64,000 nucleotides of DNA from Parcubacteria group bacterium (GTDB taxonomy: Bacteria > Patescibacteriota > Minisyncoccia > UBA6257), in NCBI GenBank assembly GCA_012798235.1, contig JAAZNP010000004.1:2171-66170 (forward strand), in the 5' to 3' direction. Both the position numbers and the translations under genes were made by a program. The notes under the pieces are model-generated. The model did not search any database. It was not told the DNA's origin and saw nothing but the letters and a program-made list of their open reading frames with translations. Each line of letters opens with the position of its first letter. Within the stretch, counting starts at the first letter, position 1. Shown here in pieces: positions 9,266 to 43,310 of this stretch.

Positions 9266-9517
9266 ATGAATAATAATTTAATTAAAATTTATTCTTCGCC
9301 AGATTGTCCTTATTGCTATACCGTAAAAGATTATCTTAATCAAAAAGGGATTAATTTTGAAGAAATTGATTTATATGAAGAGCCAGAGAAAAGAAAAGAA
9401 ATGGAAGAAATTTCTCATCAAAAGAACATTCCAGTTTTAGTCATTAATAATGAAGTAGTTGTGGGTTGGAATAAAGAAAAAATTGATGAACTTTTAAAGA
9501 AATATGGATTTATATGA
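9266..9517 (+). CDS. Glutaredoxin/NrdH-like protein (CPYC)
   Basis: The sequence YSSPDCPYCYTVKDYL is present. 83 aa. Confidence 0.8.
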   Translation: MNNNLIKIYSSPDCPYCYTVKDYLNQKGINFEEIDLYEEPEKRKEMEEISHQKNIPVLVINNEVVVGWNKEKIDELLKKYGFI

Positions 9518-10424
9518 TCTAATTATTATTGGCGCTGGACCAGCAGGAATTACTGCTGGTATTTATGCTGCGCGCAAAAAGATTAAAACTCTTTTAATTA
9601 CCAAAGATTTTACTGGCCAAGTTGGTTTATCTTGGAAAATAGAAAATTATCCTGGTTTTAAACAAATTAGTGGTCTAAAGTTAATGGAAAATTTGAAAAA
9701 TCATTTAAAAGAATACGAAATTGAAATCAAAAATTTTGAAGAAGTAAAACAAATTGTAAAAGATAATAATTACTTTCAAACTATTACTAATGAAAATAAA
9801 TATTTAGCAAGAACATTAATTATTGCCACTGGTGCTTTACCTAAAAAATTAGCGATAAAAAACGAAAAAAAATTTCTTGGCCACGGCTTATCTTATTGTT
9901 TAACTTGCGATGAAAAAGCTTTTGAAGGAAAAATTGTGGCAGTGATTGGCGGTGGTAATGCTGGCGCCGAAGCTGCTCTAGAATTACAAAAATTTTGTCC
10001 CAAAATTTATCTTTTAGAATATTTAGAAAATTTAACTGGTGATGAAATTTTGAAAGAAGAAGTGTTAAATAGTCCCTCGATTACAGTTATTACTAATGCT
10101 CAAGTATTAAGTTTTGAGGGTGAGAAAGAATTAGAAAAAATTATTTTTAAAGACAGAAAAACAAATAAAGAAAAAGAAATTTTAATTAATGGCTGCTTTG
10201 TTGAAATTGGAACAAAATCAAATACCGAATTTTTAGAAGGGTTAGTAGAATTAAATGAGAAAAAAGAAATCATCGTTGATCCTAAAACAATGGTAACCTC
10301 AGTAAAAGGAATTTTTGCTGCTGGCGATGTTGGTAATTTTAATCAAAAACAAATTATTCTTGCCTGTGGTCAGGGCGCTTTAGCAGCTTTATCAGCTTAT
10401 CAATATTTAAAAACATTAAAATAG
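9504..10424 (+). CDS. trxB: Thioredoxin-disulfide reductase
   Basis: The FAD motif GAGPAG, the redox-active CLTCD (CxxC) and the NADPH-binding motif GGGNAG are all present. It overlaps grx by 14 nt. Confidence 0.85.
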   Translation: MDLYDLIIIGAGPAGITAGIYAARKKIKTLLITKDFTGQVGLSWKIENYPGFKQISGLKLMENLKNHLKEYEIEIKNFEEVKQIVKDNNYFQTITNENKYLARTLIIATGALPKKLAIKNEKKFLGHGLSYCLTCDEKAFEGKIVAVIGGGNAGAEAALELQKFCPKIYLLEYLENLTGDEILKEEVLNSPSITVITNAQVLSFEGEKELEKIIFKDRKTNKEKEILINGCFVEIGTKSNTEFLEGLVELNEKKEIIVDPKTMVTSVKGIFAAGDVGNFNQKQIILACGQGALAALSAYQYLKTLK

Positions 10425-10428
10425 AAGT

Positions 10429-12024
10429 ATGATTAATAAAAACAAAATTTTGGGCTTATTTTTAGTAATTACTTTAATTCTTTCGTTTTTCTCTTTTTAT
10501 TCATCTAGTAGAGCTCAAGAAAAAGAAGTTAATTTGTATTTTTTCTGGGGTCAAGGTTGTCCTCATTGTGCTCACGAGAAGCCATTTCTTGAATCATTAA
10601 AATCAAAATATCCTCAGTTAAAAATTTATGATTTTGAAGTTTGGTATAACCAGAAAAACAGAGATTTATTAATTGAGGTAGGAAAAAAACTAAAAATAGA
10701 TATTAGTGGCGTTCCTTTAACAATTATAAATGATCAGCCGATTATCGGTTATTATGATGATACTACCACCGGCAAACAAATCGAAGATTTAATAATTAAA
10801 TGTCTAAATAGCTCTTGTAAGGATTCGGTTAGAGAAATTGTTTTTAAAAATTTAACCACCACTACTAAAAAAGAAACTCCTTCAACCACTACTACCACTA
10901 CTATCTCTCAAAAAGAAATTAAAGCCTACCTTTTTTGGGCCGAAGGTTGTCCCTTATGCTCTGCTGAAAAGACTTTTTTAAATCAACTTAAAGAAGAATA
11001 TTCGAATTTAAATATTACCTATTTGAATGTTTCTAAAAATAACAATAATGATATTTTAAAACAAACAGTTGAAGAACTGAATATTGAAAATCCCAGTTTG
11101 CCATTATTAATAATCGGAGAAAAAACAATAATTGGGTGGCGCGATCAAGATACATCCGGCAAAGCAATACGCGATGCCATTAATTGTTATTTAGAAAATG
11201 AATGTCCTGACTTAGTTGGTCAAGTTTTAACTCGCTTTAATACTTTTGGTCAATTTACCAAAGATAAACCTTTGCCAGAAAAAATCAAAATTCCTTTAAT
11301 TGGAGACATAGAAACTAAAAATCTTTCCTTGCCGGCTTTAGCAATTATTATTGGTGGACTTGATGGTTTTAATCCTTGTGCGATGTGGGTGCTGATTTTC
11401 TTAATTACCTTACTTTTGAAAATGCAAGATCGCAAAAGAATGTGGATTTTAGGCTCTACTTTTATCGCTACCTCATCTGCTGTTTATTTTCTTTTTATGA
11501 ATGCTTGGCTTAATTTAATCCTCTGTTTAGGATTTATTTTTTGGATTAGGTTAGTGGTTGGGATCGTAGCTTTAGGTAGCGGTGTTTATAATTTGAGAGA
11601 TTATTTCACTAATCAGGAAGCTGCTTGTAAAGTAACTGATGCGAAACAAAAGAAAACGACCATGGATAAAATGAAAGATATTGTCCATCGCCGATCTTTC
11701 TTATTAGCTTTAATTGGTATTATTCTTTTAGCTGCTTCTATAAATTTAATCGAATTAATTTGTTCTGCTGGTTTTCCGGTGATTTTCACCCAATTATTGG
11801 CCTTGAGTAATTTAGCTAAATGGCAATATTATCTTTATATGCTTTTATACATTTTTGTCTTTATGCTTGATGATTTGATTGTTTTTATTGGCGCGATGAT
11901 TACTTTAAGAGTTACGGGTATTACTAATAAATATTCTCGCTTGTCTCATTTAATTGGTGGCATTTTGATGCTTTTAATTGGTTTGCTTTTGATCTTTAAG
12001 CCAGAATTATTGATGTTTGGCTAA
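10429..12024 (+). CDS. DsbD/CcdA-like thiol:disulfide interchange membrane protein with two N-terminal extracytoplasmic thioredoxin-like domains (CPHC, CPLC)
   Basis: A signal/TM segment is followed by two Trx-like modules separated by a Thr-rich linker. Downstream is a CcdA-like TM domain (GGLDGFNPCAMWVL). Confidence 0.75.
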   Translation: MINKNKILGLFLVITLILSFFSFYSSSRAQEKEVNLYFFWGQGCPHCAHEKPFLESLKSKYPQLKIYDFEVWYNQKNRDLLIEVGKKLKIDISGVPLTIINDQPIIGYYDDTTTGKQIEDLIIKCLNSSCKDSVREIVFKNLTTTTKKETPSTTTTTTISQKEIKAYLFWAEGCPLCSAEKTFLNQLKEEYSNLNITYLNVSKNNNNDILKQTVEELNIENPSLPLLIIGEKTIIGWRDQDTSGKAIRDAINCYLENECPDLVGQVLTRFNTFGQFTKDKPLPEKIKIPLIGDIETKNLSLPALAIIIGGLDGFNPCAMWVLIFLITLLLKMQDRKRMWILGSTFIATSSAVYFLFMNAWLNLILCLGFIFWIRLVVGIVALGSGVYNLRDYFTNQEAACKVTDAKQKKTTMDKMKDIVHRRSFLLALIGIILLAASINLIELICSAGFPVIFTQLLALSNLAKWQYYLYMLLYIFVFMLDDLIVFIGAMITLRVTGITNKYSRLSHLIGGILMLLIGLLLIFKPELLMFG

Positions 12025-19298: not shown

Positions 19299-20021
19299 AT
19301 GATTTCAAGAAAACTTTTCTGGCGTGATCTAAAGTTATTTTTGAGAATTTTTTTAATTCTTTTTGCTGTGATTTTTTTTATTTTTGATGGCACGGCTTTT
19401 GGGGCTATTGCAACTTATAAAATTAGTCATTTTTTTAATTTAGCTAAAACCAAAATTTTCGAGCCTCCTAATTTAAACATTTTTTCAGAAAGTGCCACCA
19501 CAACACTTTCTCAAGGCAGCCCCAATACTACTACTACTAAAACCACTACTTCTTTACCCACCCCTCCTTCAGAATTACAAAATACCAATTTAATTGTTTT
19601 GCCAAAATTCAATATTAAGGCACCCATCTGGGTTGTTAATACTATTGATTTAAAATTAATTTATAAAAAATTAAAAGAAGGGGTTGTTTTATATCCGGGT
19701 ACGGCCATTCCAGGTCAAGGATATTCCATTATTATTGGCCATTCTTCGCAATATCCCTGGCAGCCCGGTCGTTATAAATCAGTTTTTTCTTTGCTATCAC
19801 AATTAGAAGCTGGTGATAAGATTTATATTTATTGGGATCAAAAACCATTAGTTTTTGAGGTTCAAGAAACAAAAATTTTCTTACCCTTTCCTAAAGGTAA
19901 CGAAACTACGGAGACAGTTTTCCCTCCTGAAGAGCAGCCGATTTTAATTTTACAAAGTTGCTGGCCTGTAGGCGTAGCTTATAAAAGAGTAGCTGTGAAG
20001 ACTGTATTAATTAACCAGTAA
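19299..20021 (+). CDS. Sortase family transpeptidase
   Basis: N-terminal TM. The conserved His (IIIGHSS), the TLxTC-like active-site Cys (ILILQSCWP) and a downstream Arg are all present. Confidence 0.7.
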   Translation: MISRKLFWRDLKLFLRIFLILFAVIFFIFDGTAFGAIATYKISHFFNLAKTKIFEPPNLNIFSESATTTLSQGSPNTTTTKTTTSLPTPPSELQNTNLIVLPKFNIKAPIWVVNTIDLKLIYKKLKEGVVLYPGTAIPGQGYSIIIGHSSQYPWQPGRYKSVFSLLSQLEAGDKIYIYWDQKPLVFEVQETKIFLPFPKGNETTETVFPPEEQPILILQSCWPVGVAYKRVAVKTVLINQ

Positions 20022-24851: not shown

Positions 24852-25205
24852 TTAGAAGAATTTGCATTGCGCCCCCTTACCAAATAAGACACAGATCAAG
24901 TACACCAATCCTCGAGCTAATAAAGCAATGCCAACGCCAATTAAAGCATAAATGAGCATATTTAATGCACTCTTTACTTTTTCTTCATTGCCAGCAGAAG
25001 TTACATAAGTAAAACCAGCAGCAATCAGCATAATTACAGCAATTAAAAGCACGATACCAAAAAACCAATTGGTAATAGTTTTAATAACACCATTTGTTCC
25101 CCAAGGATCGATTTCAATCCAAGGCGCTTCCGGCGGTTGGGCTAAGGCTAATAGTGCTCCAGAAAGAAGCGTAATTAATGAAATAGTTAAAATTAGTTTT
25201 TTCAT
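24852..25205 (-). CDS. Pilin-like two-helix protein, paralog 1 (TrbC/VirB2-like core; short C-terminal tail)
   Basis: A signal peptide precedes the conserved core WFFGIVLLIAVIMLIAAGFTYVTSAGNEEKVKSA..LIYALIGVGIALLARG, shared with the three upstream paralogs. Confidence 0.55.
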   Translation of the reverse strand: MKKLILTISLITLLSGALLALAQPPEAPWIEIDPWGTNGVIKTITNWFFGIVLLIAVIMLIAAGFTYVTSAGNEEKVKSALNMLIYALIGVGIALLARGLVYLICVLFGKGAQCKFF

Positions 25206-25296
25206 AATGATAATTTTATTTTAAGCTATCGACCTTATTGACTCTTTATTAATTATATAGATTTAATCAGTAAAAAGTCAAATTATTTTAGTTATT

Positions 25297-25857
25297 TTAA
25301 ACAAAATTAAAATATTTAGTTCCGCCACCTCCACCAGCGCCGCAGCATAATTCTCTACAAGTTATAGATAAAGAATCGCACCAATCTTCTAAAGACGGAG
25401 AACCGCTAGTGCAATCGCAAATTTTACTCAAATTAGGTATATTTTCTTGTGCTTGCTCGACAATGACATCGACGATATTTTGATTTGCTTCATTATAATT
25501 ATAAGAAGAGGTGCTGGTAGTTTTTCCTTGAAGAAAATTTTGAACAAACGTCGGGATACCTCGAGCTAATAAAGCGATAGCCACACCAATTAAAGCAAAA
25601 ATAATAGTTTTGGAAGCAATTCTAATTTTATCTTCATTTCCACCGGCAGTAATATAAGTAAAACCAGCATAAATAAGCATAATGACAGCTATAGTCAAAG
25701 CAATGCCAAAAAACCAATTTAAGGCATTTTCTAAAATAGTCCAAATACTAATATTACTCGTATCGGGAATTTTAGGCATAGTTGCTGGAGGCGCTGCCCA
25801 AGTCACAGGAAAAGAAATAAAGAGAAAAATAAAGATCAAGAAAATAATTTGTTTCAT
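25297..25857 (-). CDS. Pilin-like two-helix protein, paralog 2, with a Cys/Gly-rich C-terminal tail
   Basis: Same core (WFFGIALTIAVIMLIYAGFTYITAGGNEDKIR). The tail reads CDCTSGSPSLEDWCDSLSITCRELCCGAGGGGG. Confidence 0.55.
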   Translation of the reverse strand: MKQIIFLIFIFLFISFPVTWAAPPATMPKIPDTSNISIWTILENALNWFFGIALTIAVIMLIYAGFTYITAGGNEDKIRIASKTIIFALIGVAIALLARGIPTFVQNFLQGKTTSTSSYNYNEANQNIVDVIVEQAQENIPNLSKICDCTSGSPSLEDWCDSLSITCRELCCGAGGGGGTKYFNFV

Positions 25858-25875
25858 AATATTAACATTAATAAT

Positions 25876-26355
25876 TTATGGGGAAATACATTGACCTCCG
25901 CAGCAAACTAAACCATTATCACATGGGCCAAGAATTTGGTCAGAGCACTCCGATTCACTACAACAATTGCCACCGCTATTAGCGCATGTCTCAGAATTAC
26001 TGGTATTCTTATTAATTCCTAAAAATTCTTTGATTAAAGCCGGGACTGCTCGGGCAATTAAAACAATGGCAAAACCAATAATTGCCCAAATCAATACCTT
26101 TTGCGCGGTTTTCACTTTTTCTTCATTGCCGCCAGCAGTAATATACAAAAATCCAGCATAAACAATAATAATAGGAGTGACAACAATAGCGACTCCAATT
26201 AAGAAATTAGTAATTTTTTCAATTAAGGTATAAATATCAGACGTTTCGCCTAAAGGATTAGGGATGGTTATTTCAGTGGTTTTATCTTCAGCAAAAGTTA
26301 TTGCAGTTAAACTAATGAGAAATATTAAAACCAAGATAAATATTTTTTGTTTCAT
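25876..26355 (-). CDS. Pilin-like two-helix protein, paralog 3, with a Cys-rich tail
   Basis: Core IIVYAGFLYITAGGNEEKVKTA. The tail reads CANSGGNCCSESECSDQILGPCDNGLVCCGGQC. Confidence 0.55.
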   Translation of the reverse strand: MKQKIFILVLIFLISLTAITFAEDKTTEITIPNPLGETSDIYTLIEKITNFLIGVAIVVTPIIIVYAGFLYITAGGNEEKVKTAQKVLIWAIIGFAIVLIARAVPALIKEFLGINKNTSNSETCANSGGNCCSESECSDQILGPCDNGLVCCGGQCISP

Positions 26356-26405
26356 AGATTTTTATTTTATTATTAGGCTCAATATTAAAAATTTATTATA
26401 CTAAG

Positions 26406-27302
26406 TTATTTACATGCATTTGGGTCGCTAGGATCGCATTCATTGGGGCAAGGTGGACATAAATGGTTATTACCCGTGGCACAGTAAGTTTCGAATTGTT
26501 TGGTGTTACAGTTTTTAACCGTTCTACACACAGTATAATTTTCACAATAAACCATGAGTTGTCCGCCTTCACACGGTCCGCCCTGGTTTGGGGGTTCTGG
26601 ATTTTTAGGTTCTGCTATAATCTTTGAAGGATCTGCTGGAACACAGCAAATAGTACCCTCGGGGCAATGTGTAATATTGGGATCAGTTAGAACCACTGTG
26701 GCAGCATCACAATTAGGATTCCAATTTAACCAACCTTCCATTTTTTCTACACAAGCATAACCCGTCATATCACCGCACCAATTTTCTGAAGAACCACCAT
26801 TGTAGTTACCTCCACCATTATAGTTACCACCACCATTATAGTTACCACCATCAATATTGTTACCACCATTACTATAACTTATCTTTTTTTCTTCACATTT
26901 TAATTGCCACCAAGTGCCAGTATAATCAGAACCACCAATCTGAGCCACTAGCCAAAAAACAGTATTTACAATTAACCACGAGCAAAGAATAATCGCTAAG
27001 CCAATTAAGGCACTAGCCAAACCTTTTTGACCAGCTTGAATATTAGCTTCATTGCCGCCAGAAAAAATCCAACGAAAGCCACCAACAATAGCAAAGATCA
27101 CGACAATCGTAAAAGCCAGAGTTAAGGCATAATGCAAAACATTTTCAAATAAAACTAATAAATCACAGGTAGTACAGGGATCTTCATCAGGGCCACCACA
27201 AGATACTAATCCTTTCGCCCCAGTTGTGAACGGAAGCAAGAAAATGAACAAGAAAAAAATTACAATTAATTTTTTCATTGATTTTTTGTTTGTTGATACC
27301 AA
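26406..27302 (-). CDS. Pilin-like two-helix protein, paralog 4, with a long (GGNYN)n and Cys-rich tail
   Basis: Divergent core VVIFAIVGGFRWIFSGGNEANIQAG. The tail has an NGGGNYNGGGNYNGG repeat and ~20 Cys. It overlaps the upstream gene by 28 nt. Confidence 0.5.
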   Translation of the reverse strand: MVSTNKKSMKKLIVIFFLFIFLLPFTTGAKGLVSCGGPDEDPCTTCDLLVLFENVLHYALTLAFTIVVIFAIVGGFRWIFSGGNEANIQAGQKGLASALIGLAIILCSWLIVNTVFWLVAQIGGSDYTGTWWQLKCEEKKISYSNGGNNIDGGNYNGGGNYNGGGNYNGGSSENWCGDMTGYACVEKMEGWLNWNPNCDAATVVLTDPNITHCPEGTICCVPADPSKIIAEPKNPEPPNQGGPCEGGQLMVYCENYTVCRTVKNCNTKQFETYCATGNNHLCPPCPNECDPSDPNACK

Positions 27303-38602: not shown

Positions 38603-38738
38603 CCCCCCCTCACTTGAAAAAGATAAATTTATTTCATAAATAATAAATATTTTTTCTACTGAGGAATAATAAACAGATTACCTTATTAAATTACTCAATA
38701 GAATCTTGGCGATAGCCAATCTTTTTCAAGTGAGGGGG
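38603..38738. repeat. TIR-repeat element copy C (136 bp), abutting the tRNA-Lys 3' end. TIR variant CACTTGAAAAAGAT.
   Basis: CCCCTCACTTGAAAAAGAT ... ATCTTTTTCAAGTGAGGGGG perfect inverted repeat. The interior is homologous to copy B. Confidence 0.8.
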
Positions 38739-38810
38739 TGCCTCCGGCGCGATTCGAACGCGCAACCAATGGCTTAAGAGGCCACTGCTCTGCCAGTTGA
38801 GCTACGGAGG
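38739..38810 (-). tRNA. tRNA-Lys (anticodon CTT)
   Basis: The acceptor is GCCTCCG/CGGAGGC and the anticodon loop CTCTTAA. Confidence 0.65.
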
Positions 38811-38829
38811 CATTAATTTTAATTTTTAA

Positions 38830-38903
38830 GTGCCCTCGGCAGGACTCGAACCTGCAACCTTGTGGTTCGAAGCCACACACTCTATCCAATTGAGCTACGA
38901 GGG
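38830..38903 (-). tRNA. tRNA-Arg (anticodon TCG)
   Basis: The acceptor is GCCCTCG/CGAGGGC and the anticodon loop CTTCGAA. Confidence 0.6.
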
Positions 38904-39017
38904 CTTTAATATTATCTTTTATCTTACCGCAATTTTTTATGCTTGACAACAGATTATTCTCTTGACTGGATAATTGTAATTAAAGTATAATATAAATGTA
39001 CTTTAATTAATAAATTT

Positions 39018-41129
39018 ATGAATAAAAACTCACTTTTGCTTTTCCCTGCTTTAATGGTGGGTAGTGTCCTTTTACTTGTTACTGCTTTCTCTTTTTTAAC
39101 AGCAAACCCTTCAACATTAACAGCTTCGATAAATCCACCACCTTCTCCATCTTGTCCTTTTGAAGAAGGATTTACTCCAGCTAATGTTTCTTTAACTTCG
39201 CCCTTAAATTTAAGACAAGAAGCCCTTTTATTAAAGGCTTTTTTAGTTAGAGTAGAAAATTGTCCTGATAGTTATTCTTTAAATACTTGTTTAGGTCTTT
39301 TCCAGGAATATTGCGTGGAGCAAGGTAAATGTTCTAACCATTATTCTTTTGAGAAACCCGCTGTTATTACTTCTGAGATTAAAACATTACTATGCTCCGA
39401 ATGGACTAAACGCTACATTCTGCTTTACCAAAGTTCTAATTGGTCCTATTTACAAAATCTATTCGCCTCTAAAAATACCACAGTTTCTGATTGGTTAAAA
39501 ACTAATTACTCTCAATATGTAAGTTGGAAACAAAGCGTTACTTCTGGAGGTACAACTAGCACTGGAACTGGCACTGGAACTGGCACTGGAACTGGCACTG
39601 GAGGTGGTACTGGCACTGGAGGTGGTACTAGCACTGGAACTGGAGGCGGAGGTACCAGTGGAGGTAGCTCTGGTGGTACTATAACTACCTTTACTCCAGA
39701 GTCTTGTGCTGCTTATGGTCAAGCTATGGGAGTAGGAAATAGTTATTCTTGTCAGTTTGCAGAAAATTGTGGCAGCACTGAAGTTGCTGGCCCTTGCCCT
39801 ATTGGAGGAAAGATGTATTTTTGTTGTCTTACCCACCCTACTAAATGTTCGGATTTTGCCAAACAAGGTTATGCTTGTATTGCGCCTTATTCAGGAATTC
39901 GCGAAAATTGTCAACCTGGTACTCAATTACCAGGGGCGATGTGCAATGCAGAATATCAAGTGGTTTGCTGTAAACCTAAAACAGCAACTAAATGTGTGGC
40001 AGTTACTACTCTTAGTGGATACTGTGGAGGACAACCAAGATATAATAGGGATTGGAAATGTGAGCCAGCGGCACCAGGAGAAAATGATGATGGCTGTGAT
40101 GTAGATCTTATTAACCCTTGTCGAGTGAAATATGGTACTTATTCGGGAATTTGCGATCTCAATTATTGTGTACCTTCTTCTGAATGTAAGGGTTTAATTA
40201 ATAATTTATATGGTTGTCCTGATAGTACGAATGTCTGCTGTAATTATAAAACAGAAGAAATACCAGTAAATCAACTTAATATGTGCGATCATACTTGTGT
40301 TAAACCTTATCCCAATTCTCAATATCCAAATGATATTTGTGGTCCCAACTATTATCAAGTACTTGATAAGAAATGTAGTATAAGTGGTTATATTTGTTGC
40401 GCTCCTAAAAGTACAAATGCTGCTTGCGGTAATGGAATTTTAGAATCAGGCGAAGGATGTGATGATGGTAATACTATTAGTGGCGATGGATGCTCTGGTA
40501 CTTGCCAAATTGAAAATGTTACTCCTGTTTGTGGCAATGGAATTTTAGAGCAAGGCGAAGAATGTGATGATAATAATACTATTAGTGGTGATGGTTGTTC
40601 CTCTTCTTGCAAAAAAGAAAATAAGAGTTCTGCTATTTGCGGAAATGGAAAAGTAGAAGCAGGTGAAGATTGCGACGGTTCAGTTAATAAAACTTGTGCC
40701 GATTACGGATTCAATAGCGGTACGGTTAAGTGCACTAGTTGTAAATACGATATTTCAAATTGTCACAATACGCAGACTACCTGTTGGTATTTAGCATGTG
40801 CAAATGGTATCTGCGTAAGCAAAGAAACTACGGATTGCCCCCATGCTGATGAAGGTGGTTGTACCGGATTAGGTAGTTTATGTGGCCAAGATTATTGTAT
40901 TCAGCATGCTTCTCAAGGTTATGGTTGTAGTAATAATTGCCAACCAGATAGTGAAATCAATGCTATTGGGTGCGAACCACCGCTAAAGTGTTGTAAACCT
41001 GTGGCTTCATGTACCCCTAATTGCGACGATAAAGAATGCGGCGATGATGGTTGTGGTGGTTCTTGTGGTAGTTGTCCCCGCAGTACTCCTAATTGTATAA
41101 ACGGAAGATGCTCAGCGGCTTTTCAATAA
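39018..41129 (+). CDS. Large secreted cysteine-rich protein with a (TG)n low-complexity linker and three Myxococcus-type cysteine-rich repeats
   Basis: A signal peptide is present. The TGTGTGTGTGTGGGTGTGGG linker is encoded by the (ACTGGAACTGGC)n DNA repeat at 39561-39603. Three CGNGxxExGExCDDGNTISGDGCSxxC units span 40425-40650. About 90 Cys in total. Confidence 0.65.
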   Translation: MNKNSLLLFPALMVGSVLLLVTAFSFLTANPSTLTASINPPPSPSCPFEEGFTPANVSLTSPLNLRQEALLLKAFLVRVENCPDSYSLNTCLGLFQEYCVEQGKCSNHYSFEKPAVITSEIKTLLCSEWTKRYILLYQSSNWSYLQNLFASKNTTVSDWLKTNYSQYVSWKQSVTSGGTTSTGTGTGTGTGTGTGGGTGTGGGTSTGTGGGGTSGGSSGGTITTFTPESCAAYGQAMGVGNSYSCQFAENCGSTEVAGPCPIGGKMYFCCLTHPTKCSDFAKQGYACIAPYSGIRENCQPGTQLPGAMCNAEYQVVCCKPKTATKCVAVTTLSGYCGGQPRYNRDWKCEPAAPGENDDGCDVDLINPCRVKYGTYSGICDLNYCVPSSECKGLINNLYGCPDSTNVCCNYKTEEIPVNQLNMCDHTCVKPYPNSQYPNDICGPNYYQVLDKKCSISGYICCAPKSTNAACGNGILESGEGCDDGNTISGDGCSGTCQIENVTPVCGNGILEQGEECDDNNTISGDGCSSSCKKENKSSAICGNGKVEAGEDCDGSVNKTCADYGFNSGTVKCTSCKYDISNCHNTQTTCWYLACANGICVSKETTDCPHADEGGCTGLGSLCGQDYCIQHASQGYGCSNNCQPDSEINAIGCEPPLKCCKPVASCTPNCDDKECGDDGCGGSCGSCPRSTPNCINGRCSAAFQ

Positions 41130-41150
41130 AATTTTAATTAAATAAATACT

Positions 41151-41549
41151 ATGAAAAAAATTATTATTTTTCTCATTCTCTTCGTAATTTTAATAATTGG
41201 AGGAAGTGCTATTTATTGGTACATTAATAATCAAGCTAAATCAACTAAAATAAGCGGAACTTGTGGCGTAGATAAGCCAATAACATATTGCAGTGGCGAG
41301 AAAGTTTGTTATGGTTATTGTAATGATTGTGAATGCCGCGGTATTCAATGTATTAATGATAGTAATTGTCAGAAATTATATAAAGAAACATTCTCAGAAG
41401 GGATAAGGAATAGTCTTAAAGAATGCGGTAATAAAGAAGTAGTAACCTATTGTAGTAATAACAAACTCTGCAGTGCAGTTTGTAATATTTGCGGTTGTCA
41501 ATCAGTGACTTGTTATTCTGATTCTAATTGTGCTAGTAAACCTTTCTAA
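41151..41549 (+). CDS. Small secreted Cys-rich protein with an internal duplication
   Basis: Signal/TM anchor. YCSGEKVCYGYCNDCECRGIQCINDSNCQK is duplicated as YCSNNKLCSAVCNICGCQSVTCYSDSNCASK. Confidence 0.55.
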   Translation: MKKIIIFLILFVILIIGGSAIYWYINNQAKSTKISGTCGVDKPITYCSGEKVCYGYCNDCECRGIQCINDSNCQKLYKETFSEGIRNSLKECGNKEVVTYCSNNKLCSAVCNICGCQSVTCYSDSNCASKPF

Positions 41550-41580
41550 ATTAATATTTTTGAATACAATATTTTATTTT

Positions 41581-41604
41581 AAAACCGCTCTCATGGGCGG
41601 TTTT
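41581..41604 (+). terminator. Rho-independent terminator
   Basis: aaaaccgctctcatgggcggtttt. Confidence 0.6.
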
Positions 41605-41715
41605 AAAGTTGCGTTTTAGTGATTTTTGGTATAAAATATTTAAGCTTTATATACAAAAGTATTTTGTAATTTTTATAATTTTATATTATAAGTTTTTGTT
41701 CCTAAGTTGTATTAA

Positions 41716-41797
41716 GGAGGGGTGGCAGAATGGCAATGCGCCAGTCTTGAAAACTGGTGCCCGTAAGGGCTTGCAGGTTCGAATCCTGTCCCCTCCG
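41716..41797 (+). tRNA. tRNA-Ser (anticodon TGA), long variable arm
   Basis: The acceptor is GGAGGGG/CCCCTCC and the anticodon loop CTTGAAA. Confidence 0.65.
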
Positions 41798-41825
41798 CCT
41801 GTATTAGAATTTAGAATCTGGAATT

Positions 41826-43310
41826 ATGGAACAGGATATTCAACAAAAGAAAAATAATTTGATTTCTCGACCACCCATTGTGGTGGTTTTAGGTCATGTG
41901 GATCATGGAAAAACCAGCCTTTTGGATTATATTAGAAAAACCAAAGTGGCTGAAAAAGAAACTGGAGGAATCACTCAGCATATTGGCGCTTATGAAATAG
42001 AAGTCAAGGGTAAAAGAATCACTTTTCTTGATACACCTGGCCATGAGGCTTTTAGTAAGATTCGTTCTCGGGGAGCCAAAGTAGCTGATATTGCCTTATT
42101 AATTATTGCGGCTGATGAAGGTATCAAGCCTCAAACCAAAGAATCATTAGAATGTATTAAACAAGCCCAGATTCCTTTTATTGTTGTTTTAACAAAGATA
42201 GATAAAGAAGGAGCTAATCCTGATAAAGTAAAGAAAGATCTTACTGAATTAGGAGTGTATTTAGAAGGATGGGGTGGCGATATTTCTGTGGTTCAGGTTT
42301 CAGCAAGAACCGGCGAAGGAATTGACGATCTTTTAGATTTAATTTTATTAACTAGCGAAATAGAGGAATTAACTGGCAACCCTCAATTACCTGCCTCAGG
42401 AACGGTAATTGAATCGCATTTAGATAATCGCCGCGGCATCACTGCTACTTTAATTATTACTAACGGTACTTTAAAACTTCAAGATAAAATTATAGCTGGC
42501 CAAGCAAAAGGCAAGGTAAAAATTTTAGAAGATTTTCAAGGCCAACCCATAGAGCAAGCTACTTTTTCTTCTCCGGTAAGAGTTATTGGTTTTGAAGAGA
42601 TGCCACCAATTGGAGAAAAATTTATGGTTTATAGTGACGAAACAGAAATTGATAGCACAGAAAAGATTCAAACAATAATCAAAAAAGAATTAGGTGATTT
42701 AAATTCTTTAATTACTATTCCTACTATTATAAAAACCGATACTTTAAGTTCTTCAGAAGCCCTCGAGCCAATTCTTGATCAATTAGGCCAAGAACAATCC
42801 TGGAAATTTAGAATTTTAATTAATGATGTTGGTGATTTGTCAGAAAGTGATTTAAAAATTGTTCCCAAAGAACCTACTTTAATTATTACTTTTCGTGTGA
42901 AGCAAAAAGCAGAAATAGCTAACATCTTTCTCAGCAATCCCTATTTGAATTTAGTTAGTGGTGATATTATCTACGAACTCAAAGATAAAATCATTGCAAC
43001 GGTGAAAGATCAATTTATTAATAAGCCAACCGAAGAAATTATTGGAAGATTAGAAGTTTTAGCAATTTTCAATCCAATAAAAGGTAAACAATTAATCGGT
43101 GGTAGAGTGATTGAAGGGAGAGTGCAAAATAAGGTTCGATTGCGTATTTTTAGAAAAGACCAATTAATTGGAGAGGGGAAGATTATTAATCTTCAGAAAA
43201 ATCGTAGGGATGTTGATAGCGTGGAATTAAATGAAGAATGCGGCCTGCTGATTGATAGTAACATTAAAATTTCTCAGGGTGATTATCTTGAGTTTTTTCA
43301 AAAAATCTAA
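41826..43310 (+). CDS. infB: Translation initiation factor IF-2 (short form)
   Basis: G domain with [12 protein letters not shown] and DTPGHEAF, plus the C-terminal beta-barrel domains. Confidence 0.85.

Follow-up and report, generated by a model that had tools for sequence, protein, structure and literature searches.

How ultra-small CPR bacteria recognise and hold their hosts is, to our knowledge, largely unknown, and exported proteins that evolve fast are the obvious candidates for such recognition. In a stretch of 64,000 nucleotides from a tiny, uncultured Parcubacteria group bacterium (contig JAAZNP010000004.1, the whole of which is called the window here), an earlier note pointed to two adjacent genes for secreted, cysteine-rich proteins. 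We ask what these two proteins, denoted A and B below, are made of and what they may do. On the whole, the description stands in that the proteins are adjacent, rich in Cys that probably form disulfides, and predicted to be exported, but B is likelier to be anchored in the membrane than secreted. Our preferred reading, to which we give a probability of about 0.55, is that the pair is a bicistronic surface-protein operon encoding a wall-tethered stalk, a linker, a variable head and a membrane partner, and that it probably serves adhesion.

An intact operon between tRNA genes

The features that define the locus are listed below.

38736..38904, minus strand: tRNA-Lys(ctt) and tRNA-Arg(tcg), which bound the locus upstream and are conserved there
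38962..38991, plus strand: promoter-like site TTGACT-18-TATAAT, an 11/12 match located 27 nt upstream of the ATG of A
39018..41129, plus strand: ORF A, intact, a modular, putatively exported Cys-rich protein of 703 aa with 69 Cys
41151..41549, plus strand: ORF B, 132 aa, with a predicted N-terminal TM helix and two 8-Cys units (aa 38-73 and 92-127)
41576..41609, plus strand: terminator-like hairpin with a 15-bp stem and then a T-rich tail, closing the operon
41716..41799, plus strand: tRNA-Ser(tga), the conserved downstream boundary of the locus
41826-43310: IF-2 gene, after tRNA-Ser(tga)

A and B are real, intact genes and form one operon. Both ORFs run uninterrupted on the plus strand with a gap of 21 nt between them, and the promoter-like site in front of them is no more than a match to the consensus, with 16 sites of this sort observed against 11.4 expected in shuffles. 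The product of B is identical to a Parcubacteria protein in NCBI. Both genes evolve under purifying selection, with dN/dS of 0.12-0.26 for B and 0.3-0.6 for A. The frameshifts that the earlier note named as the mark of a decaying pseudogene are not seen, both ORFs being intact, and pseudogene status of the window copy was rejected on this ground together with dN/dS well below 1.

In related metagenomic Parcubacteria, the order tRNA-Lys/Arg, A, B, tRNA-Ser and IF-2 is kept. The A-B pair and the tRNA/IF-2 synteny are found in L002, L003, L004, L005 and L014, and the same tRNA-Lys/tRNA-Arg are present upstream in the first three of them. The neighbours of the locus encode ArgRS, a CCA/poly(A)-polymerase-family enzyme, IF-2 and HtrA, and no integrase or mobile-element gene lies next to it. 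A compositional signature of lateral transfer had been suggested as a further check, and none appears, GC3 being 0.207 in A and 0.195 in B against about 0.19-0.31 in neighbouring genes; the total GC of A (0.39) is above that of its neighbours because of the amino-acid composition of A. Recent lateral transfer of the pair was therefore discarded, as its GC3 is like that of the neighbours, the synteny is conserved and the neighbours are housekeeping genes.

The Cys content of the two proteins is 9.8% (A) and 12.1% (B), against 0-2% in most neighbours; for A this corresponds to 69 residues and not to the roughly 90 first counted. The claim that the window is rich in Cys-rich extracellular proteins holds for composition, and the window also encodes four T4SS_pilin-family proteins with Cys-rich tails, a sortase and a CAP-domain protein. 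It does not extend to common ancestry of parts, because local hmmsearch found no module of A or B in any other ORF of the window, including the T4SS-pilin tails and a DUF11 protein. Also present are a thioredoxin/redoxin fusion protein and a gene resembling thioredoxin reductase. The DsbD/Trx machinery had been called neighbouring, whereas the Trx/redoxin gene is found at 10429-12024, about 27 kb off, and is not adjacent.

Anatomy of the two proteins

Within ORF A, the following parts are distinguished.

39018..39125, plus strand: signal peptide or anchor (aa 1-36), with Lys3, then a hydrophobic core (aa 6-26) and then LTA|S (aa 34-37)
39141..39542, plus strand: N-terminal helical domain (aa 42-175) with 6 Cys and a predicted peptidoglycan-binding-like fold
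39543..39680, plus strand: flexible linker rich in Gly/Thr (aa 176-221), which the model shows as disordered (pLDDT 25-30)
39554..39643, plus strand: tandem DNA array of 12-nt (also 6-nt) period that encodes the linker in frame, from TRF
39693..40415, plus strand: orphan Cys-rich body with modules M1-M4 (aa 226-466), from profile search
40419..40769, plus strand: Myxococcus-type Cys-rich acidic repeats (TIGR02232/DUF4215; aa 468-584), two full units and a half unit with a distinct C-terminal cap
40770..41126, plus strand: C-terminal Cys-rich modules, namely X (aa 585-626), M5 (aa 623-663) and the terminal module (aa 662-703)

Each protein has one hydrophobic segment, at its N-terminus, with a mean Kyte-Doolittle hydropathy of 2.46 in A and 2.95 in B. 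The LTAS motif after the hydrophobic core of A is kept in the related proteins P0001, P0003, P0004 and P0005, and judging from this sequence the signal is probably cleaved at the conserved site. A has neither the LPxTG-like motif nor the C-terminal hydrophobic segment by which sortase anchoring is recognised, and the sortase gene is ~19 kb away. The N-domain that follows is modelled with pLDDT 72-88 and predicted to have a peptidoglycan-binding-like fold; the domain has no Pfam match to PG_binding_1 (PF01471) at E<=10, and its profile has no match in the PDB. It is common to paralogs and orthologs with unrelated C-terminal bodies, being fused to such bodies in P0004, P0005 and L008. An independent hint comes from P0002, which has the same Cys-rich body as A with a different N-terminus; this N-terminus gives a full-length but sub-threshold match to PG_binding_1 (E 0.005, 17.4 bits against a cut-off of 23) and finds SleB (6tci_A, E 0.38) as its best PDB sequence match; hhalign relates this N-terminus to the N-domain of A with a probability of 0.4%.

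The linker was described earlier as a low-complexity segment encoded by a tandem repeat in the DNA, and this is confirmed by the 12-nt array. TRF gives a period of 12, 7.5 copies, 78% matches and a score of 110, and the perfect core of the array is (ACTGGAACTGGC)x3.5 at 39561-39602. A near-identical Logan contig, L001, begins at a repeat-unit boundary of the array (39573), the ortholog in L002 has a different 12-nt array in the same place, and orthologs of A carry other low-complexity sequence at the linker position (G/S/T-rich, poly-T or SPSPSP).

In the Cys-rich body, M1, M2 and M4 have 6 Cys each and end in CC, and M3 has 11. M2 is homologous to M5 (hhalign 96%), while M1, M3 and M4 show no significant similarity to other modules by hhalign and have only the terminal CC in common; a series of five homologous CC modules was thus ruled out, with only M2 and M5 demonstrably homologous. 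A profile search of 1.84 billion representative proteins with the central body matched P0002 and P0003 only, and a scan of genome contigs with it found no locus.

The Myxococcus-type repeats, of which three tandem units had been reported, are genuine, but they amount to two full units and a half. The proposed search with TIGR02232 gives 77.1 bits against a cut-off of 20.8 (E 6.2e-22) over three stretches, and Pfam DUF4215 (PF13948) gives 31.7 bits against a cut-off of 27. The complete units lie at aa 468-502 and 504-535 (hhalign 98.9%), and the third, at aa 539-554, is matched over columns 1-16 of 35 and diverges thereafter. In the DNA, the repeats coincide with a tandem duplication of 105 nt (40420-40622, 80% matches). 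DUF4215 is a family of unknown function, and is the only part of A or B with any functional annotation from experiment or homology. As for the supposed rarity of the repeat outside delta-proteobacteria, the named DUF4215 matches are indeed mostly from Myxococcota, yet one is a Gracilibacteria (CPR) protein, and Peregrinibacteria are to be added (PMC4736985). The EGF-like models suggested in parallel find nothing, neither A nor B having a Pfam match to an EGF-family domain at E<=1. At the C-terminus of A, the terminal module has the pattern CxPxCx4CGDDGCGGSCGSCx7CxxGxC and also stands alone in L005 as a small TM-anchored gene. The model of A is weak in its Cys-rich parts, with pLDDT below 50 for aa 465-629 and 664-703; Foldseek of this model against the PDB gives no match at E<1, and PDB sequence searches with A and with B return engineered linkers or noise only.

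B is internally duplicated, as had been noticed, and consists of two copies of a strictly spaced 8-Cys unit (C-8-C-5-C-3-C-2-C-1-C-4-C-5-C), with all 16 Cys invariant among orthologs. The family comprises 9 clusters among 5.8 billion proteins. The AF2 model of B, for which database orthologs were used, has a mean pLDDT of 62.7 and predicts three beta-strands per 8-Cys unit. Since the orthologs have no conserved cleavage motif at the hydrophobic segment (core about aa 4-24), and since the model has a confident helix at about aa 2-30, we consider it more probable that B is a bitopic protein of the membrane than that it is secreted as a peptide.

Module turnover and known systems

Orthologs of A (P0001-P0003) are at 46-55% identity, and their module content varies. 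The DUF4215-type repeats are absent from P0001, showing that they are an accessory module in A. One-unit paralogs of B adjoin A-type genes in L008-L011. In two relatives that retain B, the gene for A is broken or lost, by a nonsense codon in L004 and by a large deletion in L012, so that B is not strictly dependent on A. A selenocysteine reading of the in-frame TGA in the ortholog from L004 was rejected, as no hairpin was found downstream (z -0.46), and the simplest account of the codon is a nonsense mutation or an error of sequencing.

Among known systems, the closest in kind are the Cys-rich extracellular proteins of CPR Peregrinibacteria/'Peribacteria', which resemble Myxococcus repeat proteins (Anantharaman et al. 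2016, PMC4736985). A and B agree with them in the CPR genome, the predicted export signal, the very high Cys content and the Myxococcus-repeat similarity; strain-level variation is a further likeness, and attachment is the role proposed. Those proteins average about 1,655 aa and lie in a 14-gene cluster, whereas A has 703 aa, a distinct N-terminal helical domain, a tandem-repeat-encoded linker, orphan modules and a dedicated small membrane-anchored partner gene. For Parcubacteria, our literature search on surface Cys-rich proteins found nothing specific. The units of A resemble other TIGR02232/DUF4215 proteins in being tandem, extracellular and well above both cut-offs, but they make up only about 17% of A, and typical DUF4215 members combine many repeats with PA14, PPC or proprotein-convertase-type domains, unlike A. 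The order of a putative wall-binding module, a linker and a functional module recalls Gram-positive PG_binding_1 wall proteins such as SleB, SleC, phage endolysins and L,D-transpeptidases. The N-domain of A differs from theirs in having no detectable sequence similarity, 6 conserved Cys and two extra helices, and the module attached to it is a Cys-rich array instead of an enzyme.

Probable role of the pair

The adhesion reading builds on the observed gene integrity, selection, operon signals, domain anatomy, pair conservation and module turnover. A would be exported by the Sec pathway through its N-terminal signal sequence, and its N-domain (aa 42-175) would tether it non-covalently to the cell wall, which is taken to be present because the window encodes alanine racemase, a MurA/EPSP-synthase-family enzyme and a sortase. 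The Gly/Thr linker would act as a spacer through the wall, and slippage in the in-frame 12-nt array behind it could alter its length. The distal two thirds of A, with ~10 small disulfide-locked modules including the 2.5 Myxococcus-type repeats, would form the exposed, fast-evolving head. B would be bitopic with its N-terminus inside, displaying two rigid 8-Cys mini-domains outside, and may serve, for example, as a membrane-proximal docking or co-receptor partner of A. The conserved adjacency of A-type and B-type genes suggests that the two act together. By analogy with what has been proposed for the Cys-rich extracellular proteins of other CPR bacteria, the pair most probably serves to adhere to a surface or to recognise one, for instance that of a host cell or a matrix; in addition, the adhesive trails of diatoms contain a DUF4215-repeat protein (bioRxiv 10.1101/2023.03.06.531300).

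A purely structural role is conceivable though unlikely, with A and B as envelope or matrix components (a wall scaffold or S-layer accessory) rigidified by disulfides and having no specific partner on another cell. The architecture would then be identical, with a spacer joining a wall-binding-like domain to rigid modules; other envelope proteins abound in the window, and high Cys content may simply give rigidity (PMC4736985). However, structural proteins of the envelope are usually conserved, whereas here close relatives differ in their head modules, and truncation or deletion of the head occurs, a pattern that fits interaction or variable surface proteins better.

We also regard as rather improbable that the modules are inhibitor- or toxin-like effectors and not adhesins, whether protease inhibitors of pacifastin, WAP or Kazal style or defensin-like antimicrobials. 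On this view, B would act as an inhibitor with two heads tethered to the membrane, and A would be a polyvalent array, either displayed on the wall or released from it. The pacifastin signature is C1-x9-12-C2-N-x-C3-x-C4-x2-3-G-x3-6-C5-x4-C6, and we take the C-N-x-C-x-C present in each unit of B to resemble its core C2-N-x-C3-x-C4; the 6 Cys ending in CC of M1, M2, M4 and M5 are presumably reminiscent of beta-defensin spacing. An HtrA-type protease gene lies 1.8 kb downstream of the pair. Pacifastin-like domains detectable by structure only, with six Cys and a four-residue C5-C6 loop, were reported in 2026 from Myxobacteria and CPR MAGs (PMC13388995), the same pair of taxa as here, and the units of B are like them in being small (about 35 aa), disulfide-rich and predicted to have three beta-strands. 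However, a regular expression for the strict Cys pattern matches neither A nor B, and beyond the CNxCxC core the units of B depart from it, with 8 Cys instead of 6 and with C4-C5 and C5-C6 loops of the wrong length. Pfam gives no match to an inhibitor or defensin family at E<=1, PDB sequences give none, and the source genome is absent from the accessions of PMC13388995. A pacifastin-like identity of B was rejected on the unmatched signature and the want of HMM or structure support, and the conserved TM anchor together with the wall-binding-like domain favours display over release.

Far less credible is a decaying or selfish insertion, that is, a cassette that arrived between the tRNA genes by horizontal transfer and has no function at present. 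It would account for the tRNA genes on both flanks, for the mostly myxococcal affinity of the named DUF4215 relatives and for the damaged orthologs of A in L004 and L012. Against it stand the intact window ORFs with dN/dS well below 1, the invariance of all 16 Cys in B, a GC3 equal to that of the neighbours and the lack of an integrase or mobile-element gene next to the locus; moreover, several diverged genomes keep the order tRNA-A-B-tRNA-IF-2. Metal binding or redox chemistry by the Cys (as an extracellular metallothionein-like protein or thiol buffer) can hardly be upheld: the very high Cys content and the odd number of 69 in A, which leaves at least one unpaired thiol, agree with it, but both proteins are predicted to be exported and have only 2 CxxC motifs each, and the Cys are even in number in every module save M3 and strictly spaced in discrete modules of 35-50 aa with conserved Gly, Pro and aromatics, as is typical of disulfide-stabilised mini-domains.

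The pair is of the protein kind expected for this group of bacteria, and otherwise A and B are ordinary hypothetical surface proteins whose function we infer. As a compact example of a conserved stalk and membrane partner with a module-shuffling disulfide-rich head, the locus can easily be compared across strains owing to its fixed chromosomal position. It also brings two undescribed small protein families, the 8-Cys unit of B and the Cys-rich body of A with its N-domain family, which could enter domain databases. A bolder and doubtful extension of the adhesion reading is that the tRNA-flanked locus serves a Parcubacteria clade as a dedicated system for variable surface recognition, in which the stalk and B stay constant and the head is assembled from interchangeable modules. 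Strains would differ by the exchange, duplication, loss or silencing of head modules, the reach of the head would be adjusted through the repeat-encoded linker, and B would represent a previously undescribed disulfide-rich fold. If true, such a system would be a bacterial analogue of variant Cys-rich surface proteins, setting the host cell to which the episymbiont can attach.

A conserved gene pair between tRNA genes

The adjacent genes A and B, which encode two cysteine-rich proteins, are real genes and a conserved pair. Both ORFs are intact in the window, so that the decaying pseudogene considered by the earlier note is not what is found, and several signals mark them as a putative single operon, namely a sigma-70-like site, a 21-nt intergenic distance and a 3' hairpin.

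38736-38904, - strand: tRNA-Lys and tRNA-Arg, flanking the operon
38962-38991: sigma-70-like site TTGACT-18-TATAAT, preceding A
39018-41129, + strand: A, intact ORF, 703 aa
41151-41549, + strand: B, intact ORF, 132 aa
41576-41609: 15-bp hairpin with T-rich tail, after B
41716-41799: tRNA-Ser, flanking the operon on the other side

The surrounding genes are housekeeping ones (ArgRS, a CCA/poly(A)-polymerase-family enzyme, IF-2 and an HtrA-type protease). The order tRNA-Lys/Arg, A, B, tRNA-Ser, IF-2, tRNA-Cys, tRNA-Leu is found in full or in part in five related metagenomic contigs (L002, L003, L004, L012 and L014). The Lys, Arg, Ser, Cys and Leu tRNAs hold their position around this locus in related contigs; the window (1-64000, 64 kb) has 18 tRNA genes. 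Window GC is about 33%, and the GC3 of A (0.207) and B (0.195) equals that of their neighbours, the higher total GC of A being due to its Gly/Cys/Thr-rich composition; a comparison of GC3 thus gives no compositional sign of recent lateral transfer, for which the earlier note had advised a check.

An independent Logan assembly (SRR30978041, contig L001) carries the same locus with 1 mismatch in 2192 nt over window 39573-41764, the mismatch lying at 41144 within the A-B spacer. An NCBI protein from a 'Parcubacteria group bacterium' MAG, annotated hypothetical, matches B at 100% identity. The exact sequence of A is missing from a collection of 5.8 billion proteins (best match 52% identical) while B of the same MAG is present, and A may have gone uncalled or been dropped as a protein in public annotation.

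Architecture and proposed attachment of A and B

Protein A is composed of an export signal, a helical domain, a linker and a series of Cys modules:

aa 1-36: export signal, the sole hydrophobic segment
aa 42-175: N-terminal helical domain (N-domain), six conserved Cys
aa 176-221: linker, TSGGTTSTGTGTGTGTGTGTGGGTGTGGG..., disordered in the AlphaFold model
39554-39643: linker DNA array, period 12, 7.5 copies, 78% matches
39561-39602: perfect core of the array, (ACTGGAACTGGC)x3.5
aa 226-466: Cys-rich body, modules M1-M4
aa 326-408 (39993-40247): M3, 11 Cys
aa 468-584: DUF4215 units, two complete and a partial third
aa 585-703: module X, module M5 and a terminal CGDDGCGGSCGSC-type module

The earlier observation on this protein is largely correct, with certain figures too high. 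The linker is indeed encoded by a tandem DNA repeat, and the Myxococcus-type repeat is confirmed by TIGR02232, whose score of 77.1 bits exceeds the cut-off of 20.8, and by DUF4215 (31.7 bits, cut-off 27). Of the three tandem units proposed, two are complete, with a 105-nt DNA duplication (40420-40622) underlying them, while the third keeps only the first 16 columns before a different cap. A check against EGF-like models, also suggested, gave no match to an EGF-type Pfam family (E<=1), and the count of Cys is 69 (9.8%) rather than about 90. M1, M2 and M4 have six Cys each with CC at the end; the 11 Cys of M3, a number found in all orthologs, make the total odd, so that at least one thiol is free or in an intermolecular disulfide. 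In profile-profile comparison M2 and M5 are homologous (96%) and the DUF4215 units match each other, with no significant mutual likeness among the other modules.

The LTAS motif after the hydrophobic segment, kept in four database relatives (P0001, P0003, P0004 and P0005), fits a signal-peptidase site at which A would be cleaved. A search for LPxTG found none in A, which is thus no obvious sortase substrate. The N-domain is the sole part of A with a confident AlphaFold model (pLDDT 72-88, five helices). The candidate fold likenesses named for it are a phage endolysin chain 'Peptidoglycan-binding domain 1', SleC, L,D-transpeptidases, a Streptomyces Zn DD-peptidase and a 'putative peptidoglycan-binding/hydrolysing protein'; sequence methods detected no peptidoglycan-binding relationship of the domain, and Foldseek was also without result. 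A separate hint of wall binding comes from P0002, an ortholog with the Cys-rich body of A and a different N-terminus, which has a full-length, sub-threshold PG_binding_1 match (E 0.005) and as best PDB sequence match the SleB chain 6tci_A (E 0.38). A cell wall is expected, since the window encodes alanine racemase, a MurA/EPSP-synthase-family enzyme and a sortase. Tethering of A to the wall by the N-domain would be the best-supported reading, short of established.

Protein B has 16 Cys (12.1%). Its confident AlphaFold helix (residues 2-30), together with the lack of a conserved cleavage-type motif in the hydrophobic segment among orthologs, speaks for a bitopic membrane protein whose C-terminal part lies outside. 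This part consists of two copies of the unit C-8-C-5-C-3-C-2-C-1-C-4-C-5-C, whose spacing is exact in nearly all relatives; 16 of 16 Cys are invariant among orthologs at about 52% identity, and dN/dS is 0.12-0.26.

Distribution and turnover of modules

Among 5.8 billion proteins searched, A has only five close relatives; the remaining matches cover DUF4215 units only, the few with organism names being mainly from Myxococcota, with one Gracilibacteria protein. A profile of the body (aa 222-469) finds, among 1.84 billion representatives, only members of the same small family. The profile of B yields nine clusters, four two-unit (128-135 aa) and five one-unit (85-87 aa), all with the N-terminal anchor.

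While the gene order is kept, A itself varies strongly. Among the relatives, P0001 has other Cys modules in place of the DUF4215 units, P0002 is without M5, and P0004 and P0005 have the N-domain fused to Cys-poor bodies that may, judging by weak matches to Pfam, have Ig/Fn3-like folds. Contig L008 (248-4409) carries two A-type paralogs (897 and 383 aa) on both sides of an 87-aa one-unit B gene, with a common N-domain and Thr-rich linker and different bodies; the N-domain therefore marks a small paralogous surface-protein family. The L005 locus (1486-1746 and 2144-2401) has one two-unit and one one-unit B-type gene, and a small gene made of a TM anchor, a frameshift and a stand-alone CVPDCNGKVCGDDGCGGSCGTCPRGTPNC module, the type at the C-terminus of A. 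In L012 (62-349) the A-type gene is a remnant, the signal peptide MNKNSLLLFPALMVG... plus a C-terminal tail, beside an intact one-unit B gene, tRNA-Ser and IF-2, showing that A can be lost with B kept. The ortholog in the JGI contig L004 has an in-frame TGA (2617-2619) at a Cys codon of its relatives in module M4, followed by 206 open codons in the same frame and by no hairpin (z -0.46). The simplest explanation is a sequencing error or a nonsense mutation of recent date.

At the linker position the orthologs have differing low-complexity sequences. That of L002 (783-819) comes from another 12-nt array, unit GTGGAGGAACAG x3.1, which points to separate expansions of repeats at this one site. 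The beginning of contig L001 falls exactly on a unit boundary inside the array, which fits assembly trouble there and is no demonstration of length variation.

Cysteine-rich surroundings and a possible role

Other exported Cys-rich proteins and thiol-redox genes are indeed present in the window, as the earlier note said:

9504-10424: thioredoxin-reductase-like gene, before the fusion gene
10429-12024: thioredoxin/redoxin fusion, 531 aa, two thioredoxin/redoxin-like regions, 12 Cys
19299-20021: sortase
24852-27302, - strand: four consecutive T4SS_pilin-family genes (Pfam), 117, 186, 159 and 298 aa
in the window: CAP-domain protein
in the window: DUF11 protein, 27 Cys

Of the pilin genes, the 117-aa one has 2 Cys, while the three upstream ones have tails rich in Cys (6, 8 and 20). 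The redox genes, however, are not neighbours of A-B but lie about 27 kb away, and no DsbD-family match was seen for the machinery named. The fusion is probably an exported thiol-disulfide oxidoreductase serving Cys-rich surface proteins; no modules common to A or B and these other proteins were found.

As proposed here, A-B would combine a stalk and a small membrane partner that both stay constant, a flexible spacer, and a head that is variable and made rigid by disulfides; such a combination is to be expected of a displayed interaction protein. For the pair as a whole we consider display for interaction or adhesion slightly better than an even bet (about 0.55), while signal cleavage, wall binding, A-B cooperation and adhesion are all inferred steps. 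Adhesive trails of diatoms include a DUF4215-repeat protein (bioRxiv 10.1101/2023.03.06.531300). A purely structural role in the envelope is possible, but hard to square with a head that turns over in this way. Metal binding by the many Cys is unlikely given spacing conserved module by module, and for the window copy the intact genes, the selection on them, their composition and the conserved synteny contradict decay or selfish insertion. The general kind, extracellular Cys-rich modular proteins of CPR, is already known; within it, and with function inferred, the pair comprises two small, undescribed families and shows shuffling of modules at the level of the locus.
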